Shown here one piece after another: positions 7,063-23,538 of a stretch of 32,000 nt of DNA. The stretch comes from Dickeya dadantii NCPPB 898. Its GTDB lineage: Bacteria > Pseudomonadota > Gammaproteobacteria > Enterobacterales > Enterobacteriaceae. A program made the position numbers and the translations under genes. The DNA lies in NCBI RefSeq assembly GCF_000406145.1, contig NZ_CM001976.1, positions 3,644,232 through 3,676,231 on the forward strand, written 5' to 3'. Position 1 is the first letter of the stretch, and every line of letters begins with the position of its first letter. The notes below the pieces were generated by a model. That model saw only the letters and a program-made list of their open reading frames with translations. It had not been told where the DNA came from and ran no database searches.

Positions 7063-7085
7063 CCGAAGTGTGTCACCTAAAATAG

Positions 7086-7124: not shown

Positions 7125-7149
7125 TGGTATCAGGCTGGGTTAGCATGAT

Positions 7150-7857: not shown

Positions 7858-8205
7858 TCAACGGGCGACACTGACTTCCAGCGTCATACGAAACTGCTCG
7901 AACTCCACGTCAAAATCGTTATATTCAACCGTTTTATACGGTTTCAATACGGCCAGCGCCGTGCGTACCTGTTCACGCAAAGCGCGGGCCGCCGCCACGG
8001 TGTGGGCATAGCAATCAACGCTGACGGTAATGTACTGGTTCGCCAGTTGTTGTGTGCTGTTATAATTATTTTCCTGACTCAGAGAAAAAAGAATAAATGC
8101 GCATTGCTGATAAGACGAATGGTATAAACAACAAGGTACAGCATAGGAATAAACACGACCATCAGCCAGCTTACCCAGCAGCGGATAAATATCTTCTTCA
8201 GTCAT
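7858..8205 (-). CDS. Orphan phage tail-completion / head-tail joining-like protein (DUF3168-like), 115 aa
   Basis: IYPLLGKLADGRVYSYAVP ... ITVSVDCYAHTVAAARALREQVRTAL ... FDVEFEQFRMTLEVSV follows the DUF3168 / SPP1 gp17-like pattern as I remember it. The ATG at 8205 has a weak AAGG RBS. The ORF could extend to the ATG at 8343, which has no RBS. No other phage genes are nearby. Confidence 0.5.
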   Translation of the reverse strand: MTEEDIYPLLGKLADGRVYSYAVPCCLYHSSYQQCAFILFSLSQENNYNSTQQLANQYITVSVDCYAHTVAAARALREQVRTALAVLKPYKTVEYNDFDVEFEQFRMTLEVSVAR

Positions 8206-8422
8206 TTCTGTCAGCCTTATTTTTAAAGTACGTATATCGCAAACCTGTTTTACCAGCGCAAAGCCGTTAAAATGGTAAATCCCGAGTAAAACGTTGCGTT
8301 GCTTCGGTGGTGATAATAAAGAGAAATCACCTGATGCGCGCATGGTTCATGTTGTGCCATAGGCCGGCAATAAGCCAAAAGGCAAAACGCCACAAATATC
8401 CATATGTCGCCCACGGACACGG

Positions 8423-8460
8423 TAAAAAAGTCAGGTCGACGGAAAATACGCGGCCTGACT
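8423..8460 (-). terminator. Orphan minus-strand terminator-like hairpin upstream of the phage-like gene
   Basis: agtcagg (8429-8435) / cctgact (8454-8460) with an 18-nt loop. The adjacent A-run on + (8424-8429; a8429 also closes the stem) is the T-run that follows the hairpin on the - strand. No CDS ends here. Confidence 0.4.
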
Positions 8461-8565
8461 ACAGCACATCACCTTGTGTGATAAATACCGCAATTTAAAA
8501 AAACATGACGCCGCTTGCAGAATACGGCACGCATCCGCCCAATACCGAAAAATCACCTATACCCT

Positions 8566-8752
8566 AAATAATTCGAGTTTCAGGACAAAACGTGTTGCGT
8601 TTTGAACAACGCAACGCGTTGGCCCTTCAGGGCAAGGCTCATTGAGCCTTGTAACGCGGCAAGGGAGGGAATCCCGATGAGCTTACTCAGGTAAGTGATT
8701 CGGGTTACTGAGTGCAGCCAACGCACCTGCAACTTGAAGTATGACGGGTATA
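8566..8752 (+). repeat. ERIC (enterobacterial repetitive intergenic consensus) element, enlarged form with an internal insertion of about 70 bp
   Basis: The right half gaatcccgatgagcttactcaggtaagtgattcgggttactgagtgcagccaacgcacctgcaacttgaagtatgacgggtat matches the ERIC core (compare the ERIC primer regions GTGAATCCCCAGGAGCTTACAT / AAGTAAGTGACTGGGGTGAGCG). The left arm is aaataattcgagtttcagga. Extra DNA lies between the left arm and the core. Confidence 0.9.
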
Positions 8753-8994
8753 AAACAATATTTGCGTGGAGTCACAGATTCCCCGCTGACGGCCATTTTA
8801 TCCATAAGATCAGCGAATACGCCCTGACCCTCTCCCCGTGGCAAAAACTACTGTTTTGTCATGACGGTTTGACGGAGGAAAAATAACGCCGCCTGACACA
8901 TTCCAAATACGGGCGACAATTCTGAATACCGAATAATACCGCTATCCCCAAGAACGAAAACCGATAGCCAATGATTACCAGAGAGGACACTTTT

Positions 8995-9951
8995 ATGTGG
9001 AAACGCGTCATTTTAGCTTCAGCTGTGTGTGCGTCCCTGTCATCCGTCGCGCTGGCAGCGCCATTAACGGTGGGGTTTTCTCAAGTCGGTTCGGAATCAG
9101 GCTGGCGCGCGGCTGAAACCACCGTTGCGAAAGAACAGGCGAAAGCGCACGGCATTAACCTGAAAATTGCCGATGCCCAGCAAAAACAGGAAAACCAGAT
9201 CAAGGCGGTGCGCTCCTTCATCGCGCAAGGGGTGGACGCCATTTTCATTGCGCCGGTGGTGGCGACCGGCTGGGAACCGGTGCTGAAAGAAGCCAAAGAA
9301 GCCAAGATTCCGGTGATCCTGCTGGACCGCGGCATTGACGTCAAAGACGACTCGCTCTATCTCACCACCGTGCGCGCCGACAATATCAAAGAAGGGGCAT
9401 TGATTGGCGACTGGCTGATTAAAAACGAAAACGGCAAAGCCTGTAATGTGGTGCAACTGGAAGGCACCGTCGGCGCCAGCGTCGCCATTGACCGTAAAAA
9501 AGGGTTTGAAGAGGCCATCGCCAAAACGCCGAATATTAAAATCATCCGTTCCCAGTCCGGTGATTTCACCCGTAGCGGCGGCAAGCAGGTAATGGAAAGT
9601 TTTATCAAGTCGGAAAACAACGGCAAAAATATCTGCATGGTCTTCGCCCATAACGACGATATGGTGATTGGCGCCATTCAGGCTATTAAGGAAGCCGGCT
9701 TGAAACCGGGCAAAGATATTCTGACCGGCTCGATTGACGGCGTACCGGATATTTTCCGCGCCATGCTGGCGGGTGAAGCCAATGTCTCGGTCGAGCTGAC
9801 GCCGAATATGGCCGGGCCGGCGTTTGATGCACTGGAGAAATATAAAAAGGATGGCACGCTGCCGCCCAAATTGATTCTGACGCCGTCCACGCTGTTCAAA
9901 CCCGACAGCGCGCAGGCCGAGCTCGATAAGAAAAAGAACATGGGATATTGA
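8995..9951 (+). CDS. ytfQ: Galactofuranose ABC transporter periplasmic binding protein YtfQ, 318 aa
   Basis: The ATG at 8995 follows agagagga. MWKRVILASAVCASLSSVALAAPLTVGFSQVGSESGWRAAET...NMGY is nearly collinear with E. coli YtfQ (from memory). Confidence 0.95.
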   Translation: MWKRVILASAVCASLSSVALAAPLTVGFSQVGSESGWRAAETTVAKEQAKAHGINLKIADAQQKQENQIKAVRSFIAQGVDAIFIAPVVATGWEPVLKEAKEAKIPVILLDRGIDVKDDSLYLTTVRADNIKEGALIGDWLIKNENGKACNVVQLEGTVGASVAIDRKKGFEEAIAKTPNIKIIRSQSGDFTRSGGKQVMESFIKSENNGKNICMVFAHNDDMVIGAIQAIKEAGLKPGKDILTGSIDGVPDIFRAMLAGEANVSVELTPNMAGPAFDALEKYKKDGTLPPKLILTPSTLFKPDSAQAELDKKKNMGY

Positions 9952-9969
9952 TCGTTTATCGTCATCTCC

Positions 9970-9993
9970 GTCCTGCCACTGCCGTGGCAGGAC
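9970..9993 (+). other. Intercistronic stem-loop after ytfQ (attenuator or mRNA stabiliser typical after binding-protein genes)
   Basis: gtcctgccac (9970-9979) / gtggcaggac (9984-9993), a 10-bp stem with a 4-nt loop. gttttg follows 9 nt later. Confidence 0.6.
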
Positions 9994-10020
9994 ATCGCCG
10001 GTTTTGTGAGGGAGAATCGC

Positions 10021-11523
10021 ATGAACGGTTTCGACAACCAGGACATCCTGCGTACGGAAGGGCTGAGTAAACACTTTCCCGGGGTAAAAGCGCTGGATAA
10101 GGTGGACTTCAGCCTGCGGCGCGGGGAAATCATGGCGTTGCTGGGGGAAAACGGCGCGGGGAAATCCACGCTGATTAAAACCCTCACCGGGGTGTATCAG
10201 CGCGATGCGGGCGCTATCTACCTCGAAGGCCGGTCCATTTCGCCGAAAAACACCGCTCACGCCCAGCAATTGGGGATCGGCACGGTATATCAGGAGGTGA
10301 ACCTGCTGCCCAACCTGTCGGTGGCGGATAACCTGTTCATCGGCCGCGAACCCAGGCGCTTCGGATTGCTGCAACGCAAAGAGATGGAAAAACGCGCCGC
10401 CGCGCTGATGTCCTCCTACGGTTTCGAACTGGATGTCCGCGAACCGCTGAACCGCTTTTCGGTGGCGATGCAGCAAATCGTCGCCATCTGCCGCGCGATC
10501 GACCTCTCCGCCAAGGTCTTGATCCTCGACGAACCCACCGCCAGCCTAGACACCCAGGAAGTGGAAATGCTGTTCACCCTGATGCGTCAGCTGCGCGATC
10601 AGGGCGTCAGCCTGATCTTCGTCACGCATTTTCTCGACCAGGTTTATCAGGTGACCGACCGCATCACGGTGCTGCGCAACGGCGCGTTCGTCGGCACCCG
10701 CGACACCGCCTCGCTGCCGCAGATCGAGCTGGTAAAAATGATGCTGGGGCGCGAACTGGAGCAGAACGCGCTGCAACGCGCCGGCCGCACGCTGCTGAGC
10801 GACAAACCGGTGGTGGAATTCAAAGGCTACGGCAAAAAAGGCGTGATTGCGCCGTTCGAACTGGCGGTGCGGCCCGGCGAAATCGTCGGTCTTGCCGGGC
10901 TGCTAGGCTCCGGACGCACGGAAACCGCCGAAGTGATCTTTGGCATCAAACCAGCCGATTGCGGCGAAGCGGTGATCAAAGGCAAACCGCAGACGCTGCG
11001 CTCGCCGCATCAGGCTTCCTGCCTTGGCATCGGCTTTTGTCCGGAAGATCGCAAAACCGACGGCATCATCGCCGCCGCCTCGGTGCAGGAAAATATTATT
11101 CTGGCGCTGCAAGCCCAGCGTGGCTGGCTACGCCCGATCCCTCGCAAGGAACAGCAGGCCATCGCCGAACGGTTCATCCGCCAGCTTGGCATTCGCACGC
11201 CGAGCGCCGAACAGCCCATCGAATTGTTGTCCGGCGGTAATCAGCAGAAAGTGTTGCTGTCGCGCTGGCTGCTGACCAAGCCGCAATTCCTGATCCTCGA
11301 TGAACCGACGCGCGGCATCGACGTCGGCGCGCATGCCGAGATCATCCGGCTGATCGAAAGCCTGTGCGCCAACGGGCTGGCGCTGCTGGTGATCTCTTCC
11401 GAACTGGAGGAGTTGGTGGGGTACGCCGACCGGGTACTGATTATGCGCGACCGGCAGCAGGTGGCGGAAATCCCGCTCGACCAACTGTCCGTTTCCGCCA
11501 TCATGAATGCCATCGCGGCATAA
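10021..11523 (+). CDS. ytfR: Galactofuranose ABC transporter ATP-binding protein YtfR (duplicated ATPase), 500 aa
   Basis: The ATG at 10021 follows GAGGGAGAA. ILRTEGLSKHFPGVKALD.VDFSLRRGEIMALLGENGAGKSTLIK...LSGGNQQKVLLSRWLLT.PQFLILDEPTRGIDVGAHAEI matches E. coli YtfR. Confidence 0.95.
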   Translation: MNGFDNQDILRTEGLSKHFPGVKALDKVDFSLRRGEIMALLGENGAGKSTLIKTLTGVYQRDAGAIYLEGRSISPKNTAHAQQLGIGTVYQEVNLLPNLSVADNLFIGREPRRFGLLQRKEMEKRAAALMSSYGFELDVREPLNRFSVAMQQIVAICRAIDLSAKVLILDEPTASLDTQEVEMLFTLMRQLRDQGVSLIFVTHFLDQVYQVTDRITVLRNGAFVGTRDTASLPQIELVKMMLGRELEQNALQRAGRTLLSDKPVVEFKGYGKKGVIAPFELAVRPGEIVGLAGLLGSGRTETAEVIFGIKPADCGEAVIKGKPQTLRSPHQASCLGIGFCPEDRKTDGIIAAASVQENIILALQAQRGWLRPIPRKEQQAIAERFIRQLGIRTPSAEQPIELLSGGNQQKVLLSRWLLTKPQFLILDEPTRGIDVGAHAEIIRLIESLCANGLALLVISSELEELVGYADRVLIMRDRQQVAEIPLDQLSVSAIMNAIAA

Positions 11524-11536
11524 GGAGGACAGGGTG

Positions 11537-12574
11537 ATGCTTCGCTCACAGCTCAAACCGGGCTCCGACAAACGTCCGTTTCGCTGGCCGTCGTTACGGT
11601 TGCCGCAGGGGATGCCGCAGATCGTCGCGCTGGCGCTGGTACTGCTGGTGGACAGCCTGGTCGCCAGCCACTTTTTCCAGATCGTAGTGCAGGATGGTCG
11701 CCTGTTCGGCAGCCCTATCGATATCCTCAACCGGGCGGCGCCGGTGGCGCTGCTGGCTATCGGCATGACGCTGGTGATCGCCACCGGCGGCATCGACCTG
11801 TCGGTCGGCGCCATCATGGCGATCGCCGGCGCGGTGGCGGCATCGCTCACCGTGCAGGGCTACAGCCTGCCGGTGGTGTTGCTGGCGTCGCTCGGCGTCG
11901 GCATGCTGGCCGGGCTGTGGAACGGCATTCTGGTCGCGGTTCTGAAGATCCAGCCGTTCGTCGCCACCCTGATTCTAATGGTGGCCGGGCGCGGCATCGC
12001 CCAGTTGATCACCGCCGGGCAGATCGTCACCTTCAACTCGCCGCCGCTGGCGTGGCTCGGCAGCGGCGCGCTGTTGTGGTTCCCGACGCCGGTGATCATC
12101 GCGTTGGTCACCTTGCTTCTGTTCTGGCTGCTGGTGCGCCGAACCGCGCTGGGGCTGTTCATCGAATCGGTGGGGATCAACATCCGGGCGGCGAAAAACG
12201 CCGGGGTCAGCACCCGCGCCATGGTCACGATGACCTATATGCTGAGCGGGCTGTGCGCCGCCATCGCCGGGGTGATCGTCACCGCCGACATCCGCGGCGC
12301 CGACGCCAACAACGCCGGCCTGTGGCTGGAGCTGGACGCCATCCTCGCGGTGGTGATCGGCGGCGGCTCGCTGATGGGCGGGCGCTTCAATCTGGCGCTC
12401 TCGGTGGTGGGCGCGCTGATCATTCAGGGCATGAACACCGGTATTCTGCTGTCCGGCTTTCCGCCGGAACTCAATCAGGTGGTGAAAGCCATCGTGGTGT
12501 TGTGCGTGTTGATCGTTCAGTCACCGCGCTTTATGACCTTGCTACGAGGAGCTGGCCATCATGATAAAGCGTAA
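11537..12574 (+). CDS. ytfT: Galactofuranose ABC transporter permease YtfT, 345 aa
   Basis: The ATG at 11537 (or the GTG at 11534) follows AAGGAGGA. GMPQIVALALVLLVDSLVA.HF.Q.V.QDGRLFGSPIDILNRAAPVALLAIGMTLVIATGGIDLSVGA matches E. coli YtfT. Confidence 0.93.
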   Translation: MLRSQLKPGSDKRPFRWPSLRLPQGMPQIVALALVLLVDSLVASHFFQIVVQDGRLFGSPIDILNRAAPVALLAIGMTLVIATGGIDLSVGAIMAIAGAVAASLTVQGYSLPVVLLASLGVGMLAGLWNGILVAVLKIQPFVATLILMVAGRGIAQLITAGQIVTFNSPPLAWLGSGALLWFPTPVIIALVTLLLFWLLVRRTALGLFIESVGINIRAAKNAGVSTRAMVTMTYMLSGLCAAIAGVIVTADIRGADANNAGLWLELDAILAVVIGGGSLMGGRFNLALSVVGALIIQGMNTGILLSGFPPELNQVVKAIVVLCVLIVQSPRFMTLLRGAGHHDKA

Positions 12575-13553
12575 TCTGCCGCTGATGATTACCCTGGCGG
12601 TGTTCGTGCTGGGTTATCTGTACTGCCTGACGCAGTTTCCCGGCTTCGCCTCCACCCGGGTGATCTGCAACATTCTTACCGACAACGCCTTTCTTGGCAT
12701 CATCGCCGTCGGCATGACCTTTGTGATTCTCTCCGGCGGTATCGACTTGTCCGTCGGGTCGGTGATCGCTTTTACCGGCGTGTTTCTCGCCAAAGCCATC
12801 GGCGTCTGGGGGCTGTCGCCGCTGGCGGCATTCCCGCTGATTCTACTGATGGGCTGCGCCTTCGGCGCGTTCATGGGCTGGCTTATCGACGCGCTGAAGA
12901 TCCCGGCGTTCATTATCACCCTCGCCGGGATGTTCTTTCTGCGCGGCGCCAGCTATCTGGTGTCGAAAGAATCCCTGCCGATCAACCATCCGATCTACGA
13001 GACGCTCTCCAGTCTGGCGTGGGTCATTCCCGGCGGCGGACGACTCAGCGCGATGGGGTTGTTGATGCTGATGGTCGTCGCCGTCGGCATCGTGCTGGCC
13101 CGCCATACTCGCTTTGGTAACGAGGTCTACGCTATCGGCGGCAACAGCACCTCCGCTAACCTGATGGGCATCTCCACCCGCAGCACCACCATCCGCATTT
13201 ACATGCTGTCCACTGGGCTGGCGACCCTCGCCGGCATCGTATTCTCCATTTACACCTCGGCAGGCTATGCGCTGGCCGGGGTCGGGGTCGAACTGGACGC
13301 CATCGCGTCGGTGGTGATCGGCGGCACGCTGCTGAGCGGCGGCGTCGGCACCGTGCTCGGTACGTTATTCGGCGTGGCGATTCAGGGGCTGATTCAAACC
13401 TACATCAATTTCGACGGCACCCTAAGCTCCTGGTGGACCAAGATTGCCATCGGCGTACTGCTGTTTGTGTTCATCGCCCTGCAACGCGGGCTGACCGCGC
13501 TGTGGGAAAACCGCCAGAATGCGCCGGTGCGCCGTATCGCCCCGCACGGATAA
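12561..13553 (+). CDS. yjfF: Galactofuranose ABC transporter permease YjfF, 330 aa
   Basis: MIKRNLPLMIT..VFVLGYLYCLTQFPGFASTRVICNILTDNAFLGIIAVGMTFVILSGGIDLSVGSVIAFTGVFLAK is essentially identical to the E. coli YjfF N-terminus. It overlaps ytfT by 14 nt. Confidence 0.95.
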   Translation: MIKRNLPLMITLAVFVLGYLYCLTQFPGFASTRVICNILTDNAFLGIIAVGMTFVILSGGIDLSVGSVIAFTGVFLAKAIGVWGLSPLAAFPLILLMGCAFGAFMGWLIDALKIPAFIITLAGMFFLRGASYLVSKESLPINHPIYETLSSLAWVIPGGGRLSAMGLLMLMVVAVGIVLARHTRFGNEVYAIGGNSTSANLMGISTRSTTIRIYMLSTGLATLAGIVFSIYTSAGYALAGVGVELDAIASVVIGGTLLSGGVGTVLGTLFGVAIQGLIQTYINFDGTLSSWWTKIAIGVLLFVFIALQRGLTALWENRQNAPVRRIAPHG

Positions 13554-13576
13554 CGGCAGAACCGGTAACCCGCCCC

Positions 13577-13620
13577 AAACGTAGGTGTGAGACGCGCCCC
13601 CAAGGCCTCACCCTACGTTT
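13577..13620 (+). terminator. Terminator candidate after yjfF
   Basis: aaacgtaggtgtgag (13577-13591) pairs with ctcaccctacgttt (13607-13620) with one bulge. The stem ends in ttt and gtact follows. Confidence 0.5.
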
Positions 13621-13754
13621 GTACTCGCCTAACACTCCCTATCATGCCATTGAGTCAACTATCACCCGTCGGCGGCAAACTTGCCATCGGCCGGAATACG
13701 CCTATGTTTGATACAGGGACAGCGCATGTTGTCACCGGGCAACGACCCGGCATC

Positions 13755-13920
13755 ATACCCGTCATACGTCAAGTTGCAGAAGCGTTGGCTTTATTACTCG
13801 GCCCATCCTTGGGATTCGCTCTGTTGCCGCGTGACAAGGCTCTAATGAGCCTTGCCATAAAGGGCCAACGCGTTGCGTTGTTCAACACGCAAGCCGGTTG
13901 TCCTGCTACTTGAATTATTT
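13755..13920 (-). repeat. ERIC element in inverted orientation, carrying the same internal insertion as copy 1 but with a shortened central core
   Basis: atacccgtcatacgtcaagttgcagaagcgttggc... is the reverse complement of the ERIC right arm. gacaaggctctaatgagccttgccataaagggccaacgcgttgcgttgttcaacacgcaa...cttgaattattt is the reverse complement of the insertion and left arm seen at 8566-8660. Confidence 0.85.
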
Positions 13921-14069
13921 AAGGTATATACCCATAGCGCTTTCATCCTTGCCGCCCTTCGCTTTCCTTTCATCACACCACCAGGTCGTACGTTGTTCAA
14001 ACATAACGATATGAAGCTACCGTCAGCCCGGCAATTGCCCTGTGCAACGGTTTTTTCGGGTGGCTGCAC

Positions 14070-14139
14070 GTTCATTTTTCAACGCACATTTATTTTTCGA
14101 CCACGTCATTTTTCGACCACATTCATTTTTCGACATTGA
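14070..14139 (+). repeat. Four tandem direct repeats with a period of about 17 bp, consensus TCATTTTTCGACCAC, ending 25 bp before the decarboxylase start codon
   Basis: Units start at 14072, 14090, 14106 and 14123: tcatttttcaacgca / ttatttttcgaccac / tcatttttcgaccac / tcatttttcgacat. Confidence 0.85.
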
Positions 14140-14163
14140 CATGTTCTATCGAGAGGAAATGCC

Positions 14164-15573
14164 ATGACTCGCTCCAAAAACCACACCGCAAGCACACCGG
14201 AAGTAGATTACGAAAGCAGCGGGCACAGCCTGCTGACCCTGGATAACGCCGGGCCGATCCAGATGGGGTTTTGGGTGCCCAACCGGGTATGGGCTACCGC
14301 CAAATTTCTGATGCCGCTGCGCGAACATATCGCCAACAGAAAACAGACCAATACCCTGACGCCGATGCAGCCCGTGCTCCAGAACTTTAAAAACTGGGTG
14401 ACCAACCACAGCGTCTACCGCATGTGGCTCAATAGCATGATCGAACAATCCAACGCCTATGTTGCTTCTCTGCCCGAATCCACCCGTAAGGAGATCAGCG
14501 ACGATGGCGACGCCACCTGGATAGACAGCTACGACAGCTTCTTCGAGATCCTCAACGAAATCATCACTACCTCGCCGTCGTTCAACACCACCGCACAAGT
14601 CGGGACACCGATGAATGCGTTTCTGGCGGTGGCGATGGGGACAGAAGCAGGCGTGGCGCTGTTCCACGACGCGACGTTCAACCAGCAGTTTCGCCAGGTG
14701 CTGGACGCCTGGAACTGCTTCCTGAAAAGCAGCGCCTCACTCGACAAGCTCGATATCGCACAGCCGGAAAAAGCCGGTTCCTGGATCTCCAAAGCCGCGC
14801 ATCAGGCCGGCGTCTGGCACCAGATGCAGCACGATCCCAACCTGCCGGGCTACGGTTTCGCCAGCTGGAACGATTTCTTTATCCGTCAGTTCGTCCCCGG
14901 CGCGCGCCCATTCCAGGGTGATCCGAACACCCAGGTCGACATCGGCTGTGAAACCACGCCGTGGCGCTACGCCGACCAGTTGCAGCTGGAGAGCCGATTC
15001 TGGGTCAAAGACATACCTTATTCGCTGCTCGATCTGTTCGGCGGGCAGCGGCAATGGGCCAAACTGTTCGAGGGAGGGCAGCTCTATCAAGGGTTCCTCT
15101 CCGCCACCCACTATCATCGCTGGAACGCGCCGTTGGACGGTTTTCTGGTGCGTTCCTGGGTAGAGCCGGGCACTTACTTCGCTCAGCGTCCCGGACAGGG
15201 TGAAGATCAGGGCACCTGGGAAGGCACCGAGTCGCAACCTTACCTCGGTCACGTGGCCGCGCGCGCGGTGTTTATTTTCCGGCACAAGACCTGCGGCTAT
15301 GTGGCGCTAATCTGCATCGGCATGGTGGAAGTCTCCAGCTGCGTGATCGAACCCAGCACCTTTATCGTTGAAGAGAGCGCCGAGCCGGTCGGCATCACCC
15401 GCGGCGTCGAAATCGGTCACTTCGAATTCGGCGGATCGACCCACATGATGATCTTCCAGAAAGATCGGGTGGCGTTGGAAAAATGGGCCATCGACGCCGC
15501 CCGTCACCGTAACGATAAAAATCCCACCCCGCTGGGCAGCGTGATCGCCACCGCGCTTCACAAAAGCCAATAA
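14164..15573 (+). CDS. Phosphatidylserine-decarboxylase-family (pyruvoyl-dependent) decarboxylase of the long, soluble PsiD-like type, 469 aa
   Basis: RBS gagagga. Collinear by eye with fungal PsiD L-tryptophan decarboxylase (from memory): MQPV.QNFK, GTPMNAFLAVAMGTEAG, YGFASWNDFFIRQF, QGFLSATHYHRWNAPLDGFLV, PGTYFAQ, ICIGMVEVSSC, and the autocleavage motif FGGST (Ser425 codon at 15436-15438). Confidence 0.85.
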   Translation: MTRSKNHTASTPEVDYESSGHSLLTLDNAGPIQMGFWVPNRVWATAKFLMPLREHIANRKQTNTLTPMQPVLQNFKNWVTNHSVYRMWLNSMIEQSNAYVASLPESTRKEISDDGDATWIDSYDSFFEILNEIITTSPSFNTTAQVGTPMNAFLAVAMGTEAGVALFHDATFNQQFRQVLDAWNCFLKSSASLDKLDIAQPEKAGSWISKAAHQAGVWHQMQHDPNLPGYGFASWNDFFIRQFVPGARPFQGDPNTQVDIGCETTPWRYADQLQLESRFWVKDIPYSLLDLFGGQRQWAKLFEGGQLYQGFLSATHYHRWNAPLDGFLVRSWVEPGTYFAQRPGQGEDQGTWEGTESQPYLGHVAARAVFIFRHKTCGYVALICIGMVEVSSCVIEPSTFIVEESAEPVGITRGVEIGHFEFGGSTHMMIFQKDRVALEKWAIDAARHRNDKNPTPLGSVIATALHKSQ

Positions 15574-15671
15574 GCGCCCGCCCCGGGTTCCGGCTGTGGC
15601 CGGGGCCCGTTTATCAACCCGGGCCGGAGCCCGCTCTCGCGCACCCCGGCTTCATCAAGGTCAGGTAAACC

Positions 15672-17360
15672 ATGTGTACCACAATGATTATCACCCGCGG
15701 CGCCACCGCCGACGGTTCCACGATGGTGACCCATTCGGACGATGACGAATTGTCGGATCAGCGTTTTATCCATGTACCGGCACAGCATCATGCGCCGGGC
15801 AGCCTGCGCGGGGTCATCGACGGCACCAACGTCAGCTATCCGCGCATCGTCAGCCAGGACCGGGGTGCCGGCTACCAGACGCCCGGCTGGCCGGAAACGC
15901 CGTTGATCGGCGCCATTCCCCAGGTTGAGCACACCTACGCCTACTTCGACGGCAACTACGGCATCATGAATGAACACCATCTGATGTTCGGCGAATGCAC
16001 CAACGGAGCCAGGTACGAGCCGACGCACGTCACCGTGGAACAAGCGGCCGAAAACGACACCCATTGCCGCCTGTTCTACAGCGCCGAGCTGTCGCGCATT
16101 GCGCTGGAACGCTGCAAAACCGCCCGGGAGGCGGTGGACCTGATGGGATCGCTGATTGACACCTACGGTTATTTCTCTACCGGCGAAACCCTGCTGGTCG
16201 CGGATGAAAACGAAGGCTGGGTGTTTGAAATGTGCGCGCTGCCGGATGAAGTCTACCACTCGGCCTGGGTGGCCCAGCGTGTCCCGGACGGCACCGTCTT
16301 CGTGGCGGCGAACGAATTCCGTATCCGGGAAATCCGGGAGAACGACCCAGCGCAGCGGTTTTCCCGCCACCTGCTGCCTGGGCTGAAAAAAGTCGGCTGG
16401 GCGACGCCGGAACAAGGCCCGGTCGACTGGCTGAAATCGGTCAGTTGGGGGGAATACAACCACCCCTACTATTCGCTGCGCCGCGTCTGGCGCATCTTCG
16501 ATCGCATCAACCCGGATCTCGGCCTTAGCCCGTGGGTGAACGGCGGCAGCTACACTACCGACTACCCTTTCTCGGTCACGCCCAAAACTCCGCTCGTCGC
16601 TCGCGACCTGTTCGCGCTGTACCGCGACCACTACGAAGGCACCCCGTTCGACCTGACCAAAGGCGTCGCGGCCGGCCCCTATGGCGATCCCAACCGCTAC
16701 GTCGGCCCCTACGACGGCAACCAGAACAATGTCTCCGCCGACCACACGCTGCTCGGTGCCTGGGAACGCGCCATCTCGGTGTTCTACCAGGGCTATACCT
16801 ACGTGGCGCAAACCCGTCCCGCCGCGCCGGAGCTGACTCGCGGCATCGTCTGGTTTGGCCCGGACGTGGCTTACACTACCTGTTTTGCCCCCTTCCCGGC
16901 CAAACTCCCCGACCTGCCCGCCGCCTACCAGAGCGGCGATCCCCAGCAGTTTGATCGCCGGGCGGCATGGTGGGCGTTCGATTTCGTTGCCAACTGGGCA
17001 CGACTCAATTATCAGCGGATGTACCACGTGGATATCCGGCCGTTGCAGCAAATTCTGGAAGCACAACAGGACGCGCGCGTGGCGGAGTGGGACAACGCCA
17101 TGGCGCAGCAGCCGGATCCGGCGCAACTGGCCCGGCTGTGCGAGCACAACGCCGACGAGGTGCTCGCCCGTTGGTGGGGGCTGGCGGATATGCTGATCGC
17201 CAAATACTCCGACGGCTACATCAATCCGCCGCCGCTCCGCCCGCAGAACCTACCCGCCATTCCCATCGGTTACCCGGCCGACTGGTTGAGCATCACCAAT
17301 TATCGCGACGGGCCGATAAGCTACGACATGCCGGTCGCCCCGGCGGCAACCCGCCGATGA
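15672..17360 (+). CDS. Peptidase family C69 dipeptidase (Ntn-hydrolase), cytoplasmic, 562 aa
   Basis: It starts M-C-T-T-M-I-I, so Cys2 becomes the N-terminal nucleophile after Met removal. There is no signal peptide. GATADGSTMVTHSDD, NEHHLMFGE and GWVFE... are typical of C69. RBS aaggtcagg. Confidence 0.85.
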   Translation: MCTTMIITRGATADGSTMVTHSDDDELSDQRFIHVPAQHHAPGSLRGVIDGTNVSYPRIVSQDRGAGYQTPGWPETPLIGAIPQVEHTYAYFDGNYGIMNEHHLMFGECTNGARYEPTHVTVEQAAENDTHCRLFYSAELSRIALERCKTAREAVDLMGSLIDTYGYFSTGETLLVADENEGWVFEMCALPDEVYHSAWVAQRVPDGTVFVAANEFRIREIRENDPAQRFSRHLLPGLKKVGWATPEQGPVDWLKSVSWGEYNHPYYSLRRVWRIFDRINPDLGLSPWVNGGSYTTDYPFSVTPKTPLVARDLFALYRDHYEGTPFDLTKGVAAGPYGDPNRYVGPYDGNQNNVSADHTLLGAWERAISVFYQGYTYVAQTRPAAPELTRGIVWFGPDVAYTTCFAPFPAKLPDLPAAYQSGDPQQFDRRAAWWAFDFVANWARLNYQRMYHVDIRPLQQILEAQQDARVAEWDNAMAQQPDPAQLARLCEHNADEVLARWWGLADMLIAKYSDGYINPPPLRPQNLPAIPIGYPADWLSITNYRDGPISYDMPVAPAATRR

Positions 17361-17394
17361 CGGCGCTACGGGGGTGCCGCGCCGCCCCCGCCTC

Positions 17395-17420
17395 ATCGCC
17401 CGGCGATTTCTTTTCTGTTC
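17395..17420 (+). terminator. Weak terminator after the C69 gene, preceded by a GC hairpin at about 17369-17390
   Basis: atcgc (17395-17399) / gcgat (17403-17407) with a 3-nt loop, followed by ttcttttctgttc. Another T6 run lies 15 nt further on. Confidence 0.45.
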
Positions 17421-17534
17421 ATCAGGCGGTTCTTTTTTCGTGATCCCTTTCAACCTTTACGCCGACTTGCCGAATTTTGTTATTCGCTTTGGCGCGCCGT
17501 TGCCACAATAACCACAAGTCAACACAGGAGACAT

Positions 17535-17690
17535 CAGACCGGGTCCGTCAGGCGGCGAGGTCTGAATAATGGAAGGGTTCTCTCAGGGATGAGATTCCCC
17601 CGTTGCGGCACAGTCATCCCATCTTCTAGCCATGCGGGAATGACAACCTCCGCACATGCCGAGCCACACTCGGCCCGACCTGCATAAGAC
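17535..17690 (+). promoter_or_regulatory. Candidate (divergent or degenerate) cobalamin riboswitch-like leader upstream of eutE
   Basis: Five ordered motif resemblances to the Cobalamin family (RF00174):
- GGUCUGAAUAAUGGAAGGG (17559-17577)
- hairpin GGGAUGAGAUUCCC (17586-17599)
- GCGGCACAGUCA (17605-17616)
- AGCCAUGCGGGAAUGAC (17628-17644)
- B12-box-like GGCCCGACCUGCAUAAG (17672-17688)
AGGUC (17558-17562) can pair with GACCU (17677-17681). It deviates from the consensus in several conserved positions. Confidence 0.4.
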
Positions 17691-17795
17691 ACCGAATTCG
17701 CATCCGTACTTTTGACCACTGCACGTTTGATCAACCTGCTCCAGGCCGATGATCAACGACGCGTAAACAGGTGACATAACAAGAGGATAAGCCCT

Positions 17796-19175
17796 ATGGA
17801 ACACCCCGTGATCGAACCGACAGTACCGATGCCCGCCCCGGTGATGTTTGATGCGCCGAGCGGTATTTTCGACTCGCTTGACGATGCGGTTCAGGCCGCG
17901 GCGCAGGCTCAGCAGCAGTTGACCAGCGTTGAACTGCGCCAGCAGGTGATTAAAGCCATTCGCGTGGCCGGCGAACGCTACGCGCAGGTGCTGGCGGAAA
18001 TGGCGGTGGCCGAAACCGGTATGGGCCGCGTAGTCGATAAATACGTCAAAAACGTGTCTCAGGCGCGCCATACACCAGGAATCGAATGCCTGTCGGCGGA
18101 AGTGCTGACCGGCGATAACGGCCTGACGCTGATCGAAAACGCGCCCTGGGGCGTCGTCGCCTCGGTCACGCCGTCCACCAACCCGGCGGCCACGGTGATC
18201 AACAACGCCATCAGCATGATCGCGGCGGGCAACAGCGTGGTGTTCGCGCCCCATCCGTCGGCGAAAAAGGTGTCGTTGCGCACCATCAGCCTGCTCAACA
18301 AAGCGATTGTCGCGACAGGCGGCCCGGAGAACCTGCTGGTCAGCGTCGCCGACCCGAATATCGAAACCGCGCAGCGTCTGTTCCGCTACCCCGGCATCGG
18401 CCTGCTGGTGGTCACCGGCGGCGAAGCGGTGGTGGAAGCGGCGCGCAAGCATACCGACAAACGGTTGATCGCCGCCGGAGCGGGCAACCCGCCGGTGGTG
18501 GTGGATGAAACCGCCGACCTTCCGAAAGCCGCCCGCGCCATCGTCAAAGGCGCCTCGTTCGACAACAACATCATCTGCGCCGACGAGAAGGTGCTGATCG
18601 TGGTGGACAGCGTGGCCGACGCGCTGCTGGCGGAGATGCAGCGCAACCATGCGGTGCTGCTCACGCCGGAACAGACCGAGCGGTTGCTGCCCGCGCTGCT
18701 GAGCGATATCGACGCGCAGGGTAAAGGCCGCGTCAACCGTGACTATGTCGGCCGCGACGCCGCCAAACTCGCCGCCGCCATCGGGCTGGAGGTCAACGAG
18801 CACACTCGCTTGCTGTTGGCGGAAACCGATGCCGGCCACCCGTTCGCCGTCACCGAACTGATGATGCCGGTGCTGCCGGTGGTACGGGTGAAAAATGTGG
18901 ATGACGCCATCGCACTGGCGGTCAAACTGGAAAACGGCTGTCGCCACACCGCGGCGATGCACTCCACCAACATCCGCAACCTGAACCGGATGGCCAACGC
19001 CATCAACACCAGTATTTTCGTGAAAAACGGCCCCTGTATCGCCGGGCTGGGGCTGGGCGGCGAAGGCTGGACCTCGATGACTATCTCGACCCCGACCGGC
19101 GAAGGCGTCACCTCGGCCCGCACCTTCGTCCGTCTGCGCCGCTGCGTACTGGTGGACATGTTCCGTATCGCCTGA
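17796..19175 (+). CDS. eutE: CoA-acylating acetaldehyde dehydrogenase EutE, 459 aa
   Basis: RBS aagagga. From about residue 23 onward it is collinear with E. coli EutE (from memory): GIFDSLDDAV...LTGDNGLTLIENAPWGVVASVTPSTNPAATVINNAISMIAAGNSVVFAPHP...GAGNPPVVVDETADL...FDNNIICADEKVLIVVDSVAD...TSARTFVRLRRCVLVDMFRIA. Confidence 0.93.
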   Translation: MEHPVIEPTVPMPAPVMFDAPSGIFDSLDDAVQAAAQAQQQLTSVELRQQVIKAIRVAGERYAQVLAEMAVAETGMGRVVDKYVKNVSQARHTPGIECLSAEVLTGDNGLTLIENAPWGVVASVTPSTNPAATVINNAISMIAAGNSVVFAPHPSAKKVSLRTISLLNKAIVATGGPENLLVSVADPNIETAQRLFRYPGIGLLVVTGGEAVVEAARKHTDKRLIAAGAGNPPVVVDETADLPKAARAIVKGASFDNNIICADEKVLIVVDSVADALLAEMQRNHAVLLTPEQTERLLPALLSDIDAQGKGRVNRDYVGRDAAKLAAAIGLEVNEHTRLLLAETDAGHPFAVTELMMPVLPVVRVKNVDDAIALAVKLENGCRHTAAMHSTNIRNLNRMANAINTSIFVKNGPCIAGLGLGGEGWTSMTISTPTGEGVTSARTFVRLRRCVLVDMFRIA

Positions 19176-20485: not shown

Positions 20486-20533
20486 AAGGGGGAAAATCGG
20501 GCACGCGGAGGTCATGGATATCAGGCGGTATAT

Positions 20534-20559
20534 GACGAGCCGACGGGCATCGGCTCGTC
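20534..20559. terminator. Hairpin between convergent eutR (+) and the secreted-protein gene (-)
   Basis: gacgagccga (20534-20543) / tcggctcgtc (20550-20559), a 10-bp stem with a 6-nt loop. The flanks are only weakly T-rich. Confidence 0.5.
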
Positions 20560-20570
20560 GCTTCAGGCGA

Positions 20571-21017
20571 TCAATCCTGCCATTTTTCAATAATGACTTT
20601 CACCGTGCCAGAATTGTCCACACGCTGCCAGTCCTGGAGGTACAAGTCGAAGCCCCCGGTTTGCGGGAACGCATGAATGATGGCGGCGGCATGCATCCCA
20701 TCGTCATTCAGGCCGTAATAGCTGACGGCAGCGGTCTTATCCGAGGTGCTGGTGCGGTCATACACCATCAACGCCGCCGATTTTGAACGCGTATTACCGG
20801 CCTGCCCTGTTGCATAGTCAACCCCCGCCGAAGTCGGATCGATGCGAAAACGATAAACCCCCGACGCGATCGTGGTTTCATTGTAAGCGCTTCCGCCAGG
20901 GACAGTATTGTTATATCCATCCAGCGTCACGGTTTTATACGGCTGCCAGCCGGCCATCGCCGAGTAAGACGCCAATAACGACGCCGTAGCCACTAAAATT
21001 TTGGTAACGTTTTTCAT
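20571..21017 (-). CDS. Small secreted protein of unknown function, 148 aa (about 126 aa mature)
   Basis: RBS aagga. Sec signal MKNVTKILVATASLLASYSAMA|GWQPY. The mature part is Ser/Thr/Gly/Tyr-rich and looks beta-rich. No family recognised. Confidence 0.75.
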   Translation of the reverse strand: MKNVTKILVATASLLASYSAMAGWQPYKTVTLDGYNNTVPGGSAYNETTIASGVYRFRIDPTSAGVDYATGQAGNTRSKSAALMVYDRTSTSDKTAAVSYYGLNDDGMHAAAIIHAFPQTGGFDLYLQDWQRVDNSGTVKVIIEKWQD

Positions 21018-21258
21018 GATTCAATATCCTTCTGAATAAAGTAAAGAGCCGTAATATAGTTATCTATAAATTGTTTCCACCAAAGGTAATAAATATAACA
21101 CTAATTTTCAAAATAGATTAATAGCGTAATAAAAATCACCTGTCATATCTCGGTAAAAGACAAAATAAGATTCTTGTTGATGACACATGTTGATTGTTGA
21201 TGCTCTGCGTCACATGGCGACCGACGAATAAACAGAGAAAAGCGATGCTGTAATATAT

Positions 21259-21951
21259 TCAACAACGTTTCTTTTTTCCGGCTCCGCCGGTGTATTTATC
21301 CCATGAAGACGGTGTTTTTATCGCACATGCTTTTCCACACGGTGATGATGTCTCATCATCTTTCCACCACGTCGGCCAGCTGTGCCTTCCCGGCGAGTAA
21401 TGGTGTCGGATATAGTCGATAAATTTGACAACCTGCTCGTCTGTCGTCAGCCGACCATGCGCCGACTGACCTCTGGGAATAGCAGGGCGCAGTTCTGCAG
21501 GAATCACCAACGCGTTTTTACCGAAGTAATAAAACTCATCGGCAATTAAAACATACCTTCCTGATATATCGATCTTTTTATCACTTTCATCGTGGTGAGG
21601 ATTGGCTATCAGCTCAAAATGCTCATCATCGGTAGCCGTTGGTATCACCGGGCAATAAATATTGTCTCCGCATCGCCCTTCTGTTGTTTCACCAGGGCGT
21701 TTGTTTAAAAAGCGTGGATCGTAATAGTAATCACGAATAGTTATTTTTTCGCCAATCCGCATCAGATAAACCAGACGCTCTTCGCCCACAGGCTCCCCAG
21801 TCAAGGCAGCGGATGTAAACCCCGCAATCCACTGCCCCACCCGCTTTCTCAACCGAAAATGAGGCTTACAGGTTGCCAGTGTTAACGTCTCGCCAAATGG
21901 ATTTGGCGCGAATCCAGTATCGTGGGTCATTTTATAACTGAATAGCTGCAT
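21259..21951 (-). CDS. Nmad2-like (putative nucleotide-modification-associated domain 2) protein, 230 aa
   Basis: The ATG at 21951 sits 4 nt after GGAGG. MQLFSYKMTHDTGFAPNPFGETLTLATCKP.R..K.VG.WI.G, then GDNIY and FYYFG.NA..IP..LR, match my memory of this family. Family assignment needs HMM confirmation. It is flanked by AT-rich ORF-free DNA. Confidence 0.7.
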   Translation of the reverse strand: MQLFSYKMTHDTGFAPNPFGETLTLATCKPHFRLRKRVGQWIAGFTSAALTGEPVGEERLVYLMRIGEKITIRDYYYDPRFLNKRPGETTEGRCGDNIYCPVIPTATDDEHFELIANPHHDESDKKIDISGRYVLIADEFYYFGKNALVIPAELRPAIPRGQSAHGRLTTDEQVVKFIDYIRHHYSPGRHSWPTWWKDDETSSPCGKACAIKTPSSWDKYTGGAGKKKRC

Positions 21952-22224
21952 AAAACCTCCTATCGGATAAACGACAACCACGCCATGCGCGATAATAAAA
22001 ACAACGACAAAAACACTGAACGTTATTCATGGTCAGTTATTCTGACGAAGACCAATCAGAGGATATGAATAAAAAGGTCAACTATTCGGACCGACCAACG
22101 AAGTCCGTTGGACTTTTATTCCACACCGGAAATCAACACCAAAATAGAATATCCAGCAACTTCCTAAACGGAAAATGGATCATTGCCAGATGAAGTATTC
22201 CCACGTTTCATCCGGCAAGCGTGG

Positions 22225-23202
22225 TCACGCACTCAGCGCATCAAACGCGCGGCGTATGTCGTCTTCCGGCAACCGGATGCCGATAAACACCATCACGCTT
22301 TCGCGCGGTTCATCGGCGTGCCATTCCCGGTCCCAGTCGGCGCTGTAGAGCCGCTGCACCCCCTGAAACAGCAGGCGACGGTCATCACCGTCGATCGCCA
22401 GCACGCCTTTATAACGCAGCAGGTTGTCGGCGCAGTTGACCAACAATTGCTCCATCACCGCCGATACCGCCGCCATGTCCACTGGGCGCGTCAGCCGCAC
22501 CACCAGCGAAGTGATGGCGTTATCCTGTTCGATCAACGGCCGAAAACGCGGCAGAGAAACCGACAGGCGATCGTTGAGCATGAAACCGTCGACACCGAAG
22601 ATCTGGCGATGGTCGATCTGGCCGTTAATCACCCGATGCAGACTGGCGCGCGCGTTGATCCGTGCCAGCCTTGACTCCAGCGCCGAGGTATCGCCCGCCA
22701 GGTCGGTCTTGGTCAGCAATAAACGGTCGGCGTAGCCCACCTGCGCCTGCGCTACGGTATGCCGGTTCAACTGGTCATCGGCGTGCACCGCATCCACCAA
22801 CGCAATCACGCCGTCCAGCAGAAAACGCTGGCTCAGGCGCTCGTCGGAAAAAAAGGTCTGAATCACCGGCCCCGGATCGGCCATACCGGTGCATTCGATC
22901 ACCAGTCGGTCGAAGACCAGTTCGCCGCGATCAATCCCGTCCAGCAGGTCATGCAGCGCGTCGGACAGCTCGTTGGCGCTGCTACAGCAGATGCAGCCGT
23001 TGCTCAGTGTGGTAATGCGGGTCGCCCGGTCGCCCAGCAAGGCGTCATCAATCGCCACCGCGCCGAATTCATTTTCAATCACCGCGATCTTTTCACCGTG
23101 ATCGGCGTACAACAGGTGCCGGAGCAGCGTGGTTTTACCGGCGCCGAGAAAGCCGGTGAGAATGGTCGCGGGTAATACGTCTGCGGGTACTGAATGGGTC
23201 AT
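22225..23202 (-). CDS. yjiA: COG0523 GTPase / zinc metallochaperone-like YjiA, 325 aa
   Basis: LTGFLGAGKTTLLRH.L....G.KIAVIENEFG...DD.L.GDRAT.I.TL.NGCICCS..NEL.DAL.DLLD...G...FDRLVIECTGMADPGP.IQTFFS and ...LLRYKG.L.IDG...RLLFQGVQRLYSADWDR.W are collinear with E. coli YjiA. Confidence 0.93.
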   Translation of the reverse strand: MTHSVPADVLPATILTGFLGAGKTTLLRHLLYADHGEKIAVIENEFGAVAIDDALLGDRATRITTLSNGCICCSSANELSDALHDLLDGIDRGELVFDRLVIECTGMADPGPVIQTFFSDERLSQRFLLDGVIALVDAVHADDQLNRHTVAQAQVGYADRLLLTKTDLAGDTSALESRLARINARASLHRVINGQIDHRQIFGVDGFMLNDRLSVSLPRFRPLIEQDNAITSLVVRLTRPVDMAAVSAVMEQLLVNCADNLLRYKGVLAIDGDDRRLLFQGVQRLYSADWDREWHADEPRESVMVFIGIRLPEDDIRRAFDALSA

Positions 23203-23235
23203 AATCGAAAAAAACTCCTTGTCGCGTTCTGACGT

Positions 23236-23439
23236 TCAACAGCACCGAAAACCGCCTTTGCCGCTGCCGCCGTAGCGTGCCTGCTGGCGCTCGCGGAAAA
23301 ACTCCTCGTAGCTCATGACGTCCTGGTCCGGGTGGTTGGTCTGCATGTGCTGCACATAATTATCGTAATCCGGGATGCCCACCAGCATTCTGGCGGCCTG
23401 TCCCAGGTATTTTCCCGCTTTCCCAAGGTTTCCGAACAT
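23236..23439 (-). CDS. yjiX: YbdD/YjiX-family small protein, 67 aa
   Basis: The ATG at 23439 follows agagaggg. [38 protein letters not shown]...[25 protein letters not shown] compares with E. coli Yji[39 protein letters not shown]... Confidence 0.92.
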
Positions 23440-23538
23440 ATCGCCCTCTCTTTGTCTCCGCTGGTCTGCGCGCCGACAGGACATGAACGCCGGCAGGCCC
23501 GTACAGGCGCCCGCCGGCGGTATCCTCCTCGCCCTCGG

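Follow-up and report, generated by a model that had tools for sequence, protein, structure and literature searches.

A 32,000-nt stretch of Dickeya dadantii NCPPB 898 (RefSeq assembly GCF_000406145.1, contig NZ_CM001976.1, positions 3,644,232–3,676,231; hereafter the window) carries two neighboring genes that, in the reading to which we give a little better than an even chance, form an amine-forming module in which a decarboxylase, most likely for arginine or another basic amino acid, is paired with a C69 dipeptidase that feeds it. Both genes are on the + strand and the gap between their open reading frames (ORFs) is 98 bp:

Positions 14164–15573, + strand: gene for a pyruvoyl-type decarboxylase proenzyme of the PsiD/Ao-ADC1 branch of the phosphatidylserine decarboxylase (PSD) superfamily, 469 aa, soluble.
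Positions 15672–17360, + strand: gene for a cytoplasmic C69 peptidase of the N-terminal nucleophile (Ntn) type with Cys2 as nucleophile, 562 aa, identified by Pfam PF03577, conservation of Cys2 and a match to PDB 5IAU.

Exact-sequence look-up identifies the products as WP_038911754.1 (decarboxylase) and WP_038911756.1 (peptidase), both of D. dadantii, and the two genes have consecutive accessions in D. dadantii 3937 (ADM99690 and ADM99691), D. chrysanthemi Ech1591 and Musicola paradisiaca Ech703. A first-pass annotation of the window had described the pair as a probably amine-forming decarboxylase independent of pyridoxal phosphate (PLP) together with a dipeptidase, and had suggested that the product could be tryptamine-like or another amine. 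That description is largely right in kind and probably wrong on the product.

In the mechanism that we propose, the soluble proenzyme would cut itself between Gly424 and Ser425, with conversion of Ser425 to a pyruvoyl group, and the mature enzyme would decarboxylate a free α-amino acid through a Schiff base, as PsiD and Ao-ADC1 do. Removal of Met1 from the dipeptidase would leave Cys2 as the N-terminal nucleophile, and this enzyme would hydrolyze di- or oligopeptides taken up by the cell and thereby supply the decarboxylase with its amino acid. Overall, peptide would be converted to amino acid and then to amine plus CO2, with consumption of one cytoplasmic proton, the logic being that of the decarboxylase/antiporter modules that confer acid resistance or produce amines. 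Arginine, giving agmatine, or another basic amino acid would be the likeliest substrate, and not tryptophan.

The PsiD-like branch has two characterized enzymes, both fungal. PsiD of Psilocybe cubensis (PDB 8X4Q/8X4S/8ZIA) is the pyruvoyl L-tryptophan decarboxylase of psilocybin synthesis (PMC11929908), and Ao-ADC1 of Aspergillus oryzae (AO090102000327; PDB 9JER/9JF5/9JFN) is a PSD-family pyruvoyl arginine decarboxylase (PMC12904898, a 2026 review); it carries the cleavage motif GGST, works best at acidic pH, does not require PLP and lacks PSD activity (PMC12904898). The Dickeya system is a new bacterial version of this kind of enzyme. A literature search found no characterized bacterial PsiD-like enzyme and no characterization of PF12588 or of the Dickeya gene, in line with the annotation's remark that no characterized bacterial member of the pairing was known.

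Pfam finds each of the three domains anticipated in the first-pass annotation, PSDC and PS_Dcarbxylase in the decarboxylase and Peptidase_C69 in its neighbor. The features of the decarboxylase are as follows:

Positions 14368–14805, + strand: PSDC helical N-terminal domain, residues 69–214 (Pfam PF12588, E 5e-34).
Positions 14866–15465, + strand: PS_Dcarbxylase catalytic domain, residues 235–434 (Pfam PF02666, E 1.6e-25, 90 bits against a cut-off of 22).
Positions 15115–15117, + strand: codon of His318 in the YHR motif, aligned with His144 of Escherichia coli PSD, His296 of PsiD and His332 of Ao-ADC1.
Positions 15433–15438, + strand: predicted self-cleavage site Gly424/Ser425 (Ser425 codon at 15436–15438), from motif conservation and alignment.

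His318 is invariant in the clade alignment, and the equivalent histidine of the E. coli, Psilocybe and Aspergillus enzymes is the one most important for processing and catalysis (PMC7952604, PMC11929908, PMC12904898). The second histidine of the YHRxH motif is Asn321 in the window protein; this position is variable in the clade and is Asn in Ao-ADC1 as well. The FGGS(T/S) processing site lies where it had first been placed. Its context, FEFGGSTH, is identical in all 72 clade members and aligns with the GGS/S site of PsiD and the GGS/T site of Ao-ADC1, and cleavage there would give a β chain of residues 1–424 and an α chain of residues 425–469.

Judged by its sequence relationships, the window decarboxylase is not the lipid Psd but a soluble PSD-superfamily enzyme whose nearest solved relatives are PsiD and Ao-ADC1, which agrees with the earlier description of the 469-aa product as distinct from housekeeping Psd. 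It scores 33–70 bits with the NCBIfam PSD equivalog models, whose cut-offs are 112–371 (best, 70.3 bits against 371 for NF001941). In a single-sequence search of solved structures the matches are PsiD (8X4Q/8ZIA) at E 1e-34, the arginine decarboxylase 9JER at E 1.6e-33 and E. coli PSD at E 1e-6; a family-profile search places 9JER first (E 1.3e-41), in an alignment that reaches the N-terminal G-F-W-V-P of the window protein (G-H-W-M-P in 9JER). The PsiD alignment spans residues 93–424, and all of the blocks previously listed as shared with PsiD are present in the HMMER alignment to 8X4Q: MQPV..NFK, YGFASWNDFFIRQF, QGFLSATHYHRWNAPLDG, PGTYFAQ, IGMVEVSSC and FGGST. Identity is 32.0% to PsiD over 316 aligned positions and 30.7% to Ao-ADC1. 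The N-terminus shows no hydrophobic segment, signal peptide or transmembrane segment (mean Kyte–Doolittle value –0.84 over residues 1–30), and the sole hydrophobic peak in the protein, residues 377–395, is a conserved core strand. E. coli Psd (PDB 7CNW/6L06) shares with the window enzyme the PS_Dcarbxylase fold, the serine of G-S-T that gives the pyruvoyl group and the YHR histidine (PMC7952604), but the two align over only part of the domain (E 1e-6 to 5e-10), all PSD equivalog cut-offs are failed, the second YHRxH histidine is replaced by Asn321, and a PSDC domain stands where Psd has its membrane-binding helices (PMC7952604). By analogy with its fungal relatives, the window enzyme would be expected to decarboxylate a free α-amino acid without PLP.

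Like Ao-ADC1, the window enzyme has a PSDC N-terminal region joined to a PSD domain, a GGS/T site, the catalytic His in YH(R/C)W and an N-terminal G-(F/H)-W-x-P, and it is predicted to be soluble and PLP-independent. Four motifs are common to Ao-ADC1 and the bacterial clade of the window protein, which we call type A, and are not found in PsiD: GxPxN, FLSA..WNAP, SQxY(L/I)xH(V/I)AAR and GGST. Unlike Ao-ADC1, the window enzyme is bacterial and lies in another neighbor-joining clade, the Asp of the Ao-ADC1 'SAD' motif, which on our own reading is a candidate ligand of the guanidinium group, is replaced by Thr/His, and type A carries, in addition, an acidic loop that is invariant and the insertion 'EPSTFIVEE'. 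With PsiD the window enzyme shares the two-domain architecture, the GGS cleavage site, the equivalence of His318 and His296 and several hydrophobic pocket residues; the bacterial clade differs in being far more conserved and spread across phyla, and in lacking neighbors similar to psiK, psiM or psiH.

Type A proteins are 60–80% identical across phyla and are mostly encoded by stand-alone genes. Identity to the window protein is 93–94% in Dickeya and Musicola, 70–80% in Pseudomonas, Longimicrobium, Acidobacteriota/Thermoanaerobaculia, Xanthobacteraceae, Bacteroidota, Desulfobacter and Trinickia, and 66% in an archaeal metagenome-assembled genome (MAG). When a library is clustered at 50% identity, 4 or 5 representatives stand for the whole clade, within a wider PsiD-like family of 188 at E ≤ 1e-30. 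The plasmids of PLSDB hold no type A gene, only paralogues 30–35% identical.

Residues 34–43 of the decarboxylase, MGFWVPNRVW (14263–14292), contain the G-F-W-V-P that is invariant in the clade; the corresponding sequence is GHWMP in Ao-ADC1 and SGWLP in a second bacterial group, type B, described below. In PsiD an N-terminal tryptophan, W27, inhibits the enzyme from within by blocking its active site, and a similar lid or autoinhibitory role is possible for this region of the window enzyme.

The peptidase matches Peptidase_C69 (PF03577) over residues 2–452 (E 2.9e-48, 165 bits against a cut-off of 23). As the first-pass annotation had it, the protein begins M-C-T-T and is leaderless; no N-terminal hydrophobic stretch, signal peptide or transmembrane segment is present. 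Cys2 is kept in all 82 homologues and aligns with the first Cys of the PDB 5IAU chain, an entry named 'Dipeptidase'. The score with the NCBIfam equivalog C69_fam_dipept is 143.9 bits against a cut-off of 250, which places the protein in a divergent subfamily; with both products well under their equivalog cut-offs, both are divergent superfamily members. The subfamily is 50–80% identical across phyla and was not found among PLSDB plasmids. To our knowledge the characterized C69 enzymes are dipeptidases, the Lactobacillus PepD type among them. The window protein resembles C69 dipeptidases such as 5IAU in its Peptidase_C69 domain, in the Cys directly after Met and in the absence of a signal peptide, and differs from them in its length (562 aa versus ~470 aa), its C-terminal extension and the linkage of its subfamily to decarboxylase genes. 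It is a leaderless cytoplasmic Ntn-type cysteine peptidase, for which hydrolysis of dipeptides is predicted.

It is this linkage that carries the feeder part of our proposal. A metagenome scan with an alignment of the C69 subfamily recovered 80 loci, 31 of which contain a decarboxylase gene, directly adjacent to the C69 gene and on the same strand in all but one. Four decarboxylase families are represented, some loci having more than one: PSD-like enzymes (15), pyruvoyl arginine decarboxylases (PvlArgDC, 10), PLP-dependent Orn/Lys/Arg decarboxylases (OKR_DC, 8, with AdiA as the best model) and pyruvoyl histidine decarboxylases (HDC, 5). When GadC- or YfcC-like carriers are counted as well, 42 of the 80 loci qualify, and clustering of the C69 proteins at 90% identity leaves 45 clusters, 15 of them linked to a decarboxylase. 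As a control, which we rate as rough, matches to PvlArgDC, HDC and OKR_DC number 23 in 0.64 Mb around C69 genes and 1 in 1.04 Mb around type A genes.

The PSD-like partners fall into groups of their own. C69 homologues 67–74% identical to the window protein adjoin type B decarboxylases, which are PsiD-like, have PSDC and PSD domains and a GGSS motif, are 27–31% identical to the window enzyme and are separated from the peptidase gene by spacers down to 12–16 bp; the other neighbors of these pairs (major facilitator superfamily (MFS) transporters, regulators, a CoA-transferase) give no clue to the substrate. Homologues ~53% identical stand next to or near a third PSD-like group, type C. Some C69 genes adjoin the gene of a GadC-like antiporter, which scores 631 bits where the cut-off is 640, or of a YfcC-like carrier that is a putative basic-amino-acid antiporter. 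Loci L132 (1936–6665) and L145 (1982–6665) have type C PSD-like, HDC, PvlArgDC and C69 genes in one operon, that is, three different pyruvoyl decarboxylases in a row ahead of the peptidase. In L138 (2216–2974) and L140 (4129–4887) an intact C69 gene directly follows a type C gene cut to 252 aa and without the GGS motif, probably a decaying partner. One type B gene (L079, 6792–8564), unlike those of the other pairs, is downstream of the C69 gene and has a C-terminal extension of ~140 aa rich in Gly, Asn and Gln.

A literature search found no report of C69–decarboxylase linkage, and the association, which reaches well beyond the Dickeya locus, is previously unreported. If the peptidase supplies the substrate, linkage of just this sort, recurrent and independent of the decarboxylase fold, is to be expected, and association with four families supports, at the level of gene content, a module running from peptide through amino acid to amine. 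The same logic of cytoplasmic, proton-consuming decarboxylation, predicted for the window pair, underlies the AdiA–AdiC, CadA–CadB, GadB–GadC, HdcA–HdcP and AaxB–AaxC systems, and C69 loci elsewhere hold AdiA-like, PvlArgDC and HdcA-like decarboxylases and GadC- or YfcC-like carriers; the window pair differs from these modules in that no antiporter adjoins it. We know of no dipeptidase that is a recognized part of decarboxylase/antiporter modules, and the literature search was likewise negative on this point.

The pair itself recurs outside D. dadantii. Targeted look-ups found the two genes in the same order and on the same strand, with a spacer of ~100 bp, in Musicola paradisiaca (L074, L077), two Prodigiosinella-like genomes of the Pectobacteriaceae (L075, L076) and a metagenome contig (L078); a Dactylosporangium MAG (L045, see below) has this arrangement too. 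A block of ABC transporter, decarboxylase and C69 genes is shared by the window and Musicola at 88% nucleotide identity, with divergence directly after the C69 gene, and the context in the Prodigiosinella-like genomes is unrelated (a DUF4336 gene, the decarboxylase, C69, a radical SAM gene and, further on, hutH). Conversely, D. oryzae ZYY5 (L001) and D. undicola 2B12 (L002) are syntenic with the window on both sides and lack the segment 15616–17398, which is exactly the C69 gene (junctions at L001 9467–9487 and L002 9475–9498). Recurrence in unrelated contexts together with this clean loss indicates that the pair behaves as a movable unit and that the decarboxylase is independent of the peptidase. 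Other D. oryzae strains have a C69 protein, in one entry (P0178) shortened to 407 aa.

The substrate assignment draws on the neighbors of homologous genes. In an alphaproteobacterial MAG (L035, 5614–10928) and in L052 (1531–6957), a type A decarboxylase gene is preceded by aguB and aguA and followed by an antiporter gene, all four in the same orientation. The scores of AguA (551 bits, cut-off 382) and AguB (422 bits, cut-off 410) exceed the NCBIfam equivalog thresholds, and the permease belongs to the basic amino acid/polyamine antiporters. The decarboxylase occupies the place of arginine decarboxylase in the agmatine-deiminase route to putrescine, and if it acts on arginine, the cluster is a complete arginine-to-putrescine route. 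This context makes conversion of arginine to agmatine likelier than formation of tryptamine. The C69 partner decarboxylases are, moreover, mostly of the arginine, histidine or lysine type. On a conjugative IncF plasmid of Enterobacter cancerogenus, pUPC1 (L158, 1–6242), a PsiD-like gene 33% identical directly follows a basic amino acid/polyamine antiporter gene; the segment, which also encodes YfdX, EmrA/EmrK-type efflux and a DHA2 MFS transporter, looks like a mobile acid-resistance cassette built on the PsiD-like family. We would put a basic amino acid of some kind at even chances as the substrate; arginine specifically is a good candidate that falls short of that, and an aromatic amino acid is improbable.

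Several observations weigh against a basic-amino-acid module fed by a dipeptidase. Homology alone cannot settle the substrate, the window protein being equidistant from PsiD (32%) and Ao-ADC1 (31%). In the neighbor-joining tree the window protein lies in its own tight clade, apart from both PsiD and Ao-ADC1. The 'SAD' Asp of Ao-ADC1 corresponds to Thr315/His316. An AlphaFold model of the decarboxylase from a 12-sequence alignment is too poor for a fold search or a pocket description (mean pLDDT 54.8), and the structural comparisons given here are sequence matches to solved structures. The agu context occurs in only 2 of the 72 type A loci and, with AguA 82% identical between them, may be one evolutionary event. 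Besides these two related loci, the case for arginine draws on a distant paralogue and a single fungal enzyme. No agmatine-related genes lie beside the Dickeya pair, the window has no adjoining gene for transport or for the handling of amines, and the aldehyde dehydrogenase and AraC regulator genes downstream are Dickeya-specific neighbors. The pairing is also a minority arrangement. In a survey from the decarboxylase side, based on sequence patterns in species-representative genomes and not exhaustive (D. dadantii and Musicola themselves were missed), a C69 gene was sought within 8 kb of 72 type A genes and was found at one, in a Dactylosporangium MAG (L045), directly downstream and 61% identical. 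All-versus-all ORF clustering and Pfam counts of first and second neighbors revealed no neighbor conserved clade-wide in these loci, just lineage-specific synteny and weak themes (S9/S15, S10 and M15 peptidases, methyltransferases, GNAT), and Pfam searches of large neighbors gave nothing relevant. Finally, the decarboxylases of D. oryzae ZYY5 and D. undicola 2B12 are intact and 94% identical after loss of the C69 gene, so that any coupling is facultative and not obligatory; the route from dipeptide to amine put forward in the first-pass annotation has gained comparative support with this restriction.

Many of the same observations would be accounted for if the two genes were adjacent but independent, with a decarboxylase that works alone on the free amino acids of the cell and a C69 housekeeping dipeptidase of general function whose gene came by chance to lie downstream in Pectobacteriaceae. 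The absence of a nearby peptidase from most type A loci, the clean loss of C69 with retention of the decarboxylase, the 98-bp spacer with its hairpin and the 49 of 80 C69 loci with no decarboxylase in the available flank all favor independence. Chance, however, does not readily explain why the pair is also found in unrelated contexts in Prodigiosinella-like genomes and an actinomycete MAG, why C69 genes stand beside four decarboxylase folds in about one-third of non-redundant loci, compared with about one match per Mb in the control, or why S10 peptidases also flank type A genes (the S10 carboxypeptidase genes of L050 and L065, the order in L065 being decarboxylase, S10, HDC-like). We consider independence unlikely, though not negligible. 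The C69 protein might instead act on the decarboxylase or its product, as a maturation factor comparable to HdcB or PanZ or as an amidase that cleaves a side-chain-linked (γ-glutamyl or β-aspartyl) product. Such roles would suit the preponderance of pyruvoyl enzymes (PSD-like, PvlArgDC, HDC) among the C69 partners; Ntn hydrolases do cleave many kinds of amide, and the natural PSD substrate is itself a side-chain-linked amino acid, the serine head-group of phosphatidylserine. A processing role is hard to reconcile with linkage to PLP-dependent OKR_DC, which needs no cleavage, with the many type A genes and the Dickeya species that do without C69, and with the dipeptidase activity known for characterized C69 enzymes and the name given to 5IAU. 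PsiD and Ao-ADC1, moreover, process themselves when expressed alone (PMC11929908, PMC12904898). We consider such a role for the C69 protein quite improbable.

A bacterial L-tryptophan or other aromatic decarboxylase making tryptamine or a related amine would agree with the rank of PsiD as the top single-sequence match among solved structures, with the use that plant-associated Dickeya could plausibly make of indole amines, and with the retention of F311, L312, H318, M387, Y360, L361 and F420, the counterparts of PsiD F289, L290, H296, M373, Y338, L339 and F398. When the alignments are read against the PsiD complex (PMC11929908), the pyruvoyl contacts L290, H296 and F398 are kept, as are 4 of the 10 pocket residues (F289, Y338, L339 and M373), but the other six, all indole contacts, are replaced (Y117 by N151, P114 by T148, V292 by A314, T374 by V388, I376 by V390 and L112 by V146). 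An invariant acidic loop, Q345-GEDQGTWEGTESQ, with the sequence QGEDQGTWEGTESQ, stands in place of the PsiD loop. The family profile prefers the arginine decarboxylase 9JER, genes for tryptamine modification (kinase, methyltransferase, hydroxylase) are neither present in the window nor recurrent in the 72 loci, and the context of homologous loci relates to agmatine and basic amino acids. The changed indole contacts, the arginine specificity of Ao-ADC1 (PMC12904898) and these loci together turn the prediction away from a tryptamine-like product and toward agmatine, and leave an aromatic substrate with a small probability. Least credible of all is a second, divergent PSD acting on membrane lipid. 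The name is the one carried by the Pfam and NCBI annotations, but the equivalog scores fall far short of their cut-offs, no N-terminal amphipathic or membrane segment is present, the cleavage motif is GGST instead of the bacterial LGST (PMC7952604), the nearest characterized relatives take free amino acids, with Ao-ADC1 devoid of PSD activity (PMC12904898), and the type A distribution is sporadic and horizontally transferred. A basic-amino-acid decarboxylase with a feeder dipeptidase is the reading that we prefer. A wider claim, that type A is an unrecognized bacterial class of PSD-fold arginine or basic-amino-acid decarboxylases and, at the same time, that the C69 subfamily is a dedicated feeder dipeptidase repeatedly joined to at least four unrelated decarboxylase folds and to antiporters, is offered as tentative and somewhat unlikely in its full form. 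If the feeder role is true, it would amount to peptide-driven decarboxylation for pH homeostasis or amine production.

The sequences around and between the two genes contain the following elements:

Positions 13729–13930, no strand: repeated intergenic element resembling ERIC (enterobacterial repetitive intergenic consensus), between the ABC-transporter operon and the decarboxylase gene, recognized by an inverted repeat and a partial copy.
Positions 14067–14145, + strand: four 17-nt direct repeats, CACRTTCATTTTTCGAC, directly 5′ of the ribosome-binding site of the decarboxylase gene (4 matches versus 0.87 expected).
Positions 15580–15606, + strand: GC-rich hairpin GCCCCGG...CCGGGGC in the 98-bp spacer, followed by CCGTTTATC, read from the sequence.
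Positions 17395–17417, + strand: weak terminator-like hairpin with a T-rich tail 3′ of the peptidase gene, from a terminator scan (consensus match at 17395–17407).

The first-pass annotation had placed the pair between an ERIC copy with a repeat array on the left and a terminator on the right, as an inserted accessory unit. The array and the repeated element are real. The element has an internal inverted repeat (13729–13743/13823–13837) and an inverted partial copy of 56 nt (8588–8643 versus 13844–13899); the 56-nt copies flank a sugar-type ABC transporter operon (8971–13553), and copies of the element are present also in the D. oryzae locus L001. Its core is taken to resemble the ERIC consensus, but the ERIC1R primer has no match at ≤3 mismatches. 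The 17-nt repeat occurs four times in the window, three times in Musicola, twice in D. undicola and about once in D. oryzae, and this array of variable number possibly serves in promoter tuning or regulator binding. It is followed by a good ribosome-binding site, AGAGGA (14152–14157), 5′ of the ATG. On the right, the terminator-like site coincides with the end of the stretch that D. oryzae and D. undicola lack, and it is a weak consensus match in a region where the count of such matches is not above that in shuffled sequence. Patchy cross-phylum distribution agrees with an accessory character, but base composition does not: GC content over the pair is 0.56–0.64, the same as in the flanks, and bears no foreign mark.

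The hairpin between the genes is a further point against joint expression of a module. It lacks a T-tract, was not called by the terminator scan and is not a canonical intrinsic terminator, and the spacer folds no better than shuffled sequence (z-score –0.64). Co-transcription of the two genes is plausible. A search of 13400–17900 against Rfam gave no matches, and neither the leader nor the spacer contains a riboswitch or another known RNA. A link to ethanolamine, with serine as its source, through the EutE-like aldehyde dehydrogenase encoded downstream was considered and rejected: the window has no eutBC and this neighborhood is Dickeya-specific.

Elsewhere in the window, patches of low GC content (0.43–0.49, against ~0.6) at 7000–9000, 20500–22000 and 28500–30000 may be small islands, the second of which contains a gene for a nucleotide modification associated domain 2 (Nmad2) protein (21259–21981, – strand). 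Positions 22225–28482 on the – strand encode a YjiA-like CobW GTPase, a CstA/BtsT-family transporter (23539–25686) and a LytS-type 5TMR histidine kinase (26734–28482). The transporter gene, at a distance of 6 kb, shows no conserved association with the pair; the CstA family is linked to peptide or pyruvate uptake.

Bacterial clusters of the PsiD-like branch number in the hundreds (188 representatives at E ≤ 1e-30) and are annotated just as 'phosphatidylserine decarboxylase family', and type A itself is present in model plant pathogens, biocontrol Pseudomonas and many soil MAGs. Assignment of a substrate would mend this widespread mis-annotation and, if the substrate is arginine, would define a new bacterial route to agmatine and putrescine. 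Both genes are small, their products are soluble and the host D. dadantii 3937 is genetically tractable, so the hypothesis is open to direct experiment. The link between C69 peptidases and decarboxylases suggests that dipeptides, besides free amino acids, fuel proton consumption and the formation of biogenic amines, and peptide-fueled decarboxylation of this kind would bear on acid tolerance, on colonization of plants and the gut, and on amines in foods.

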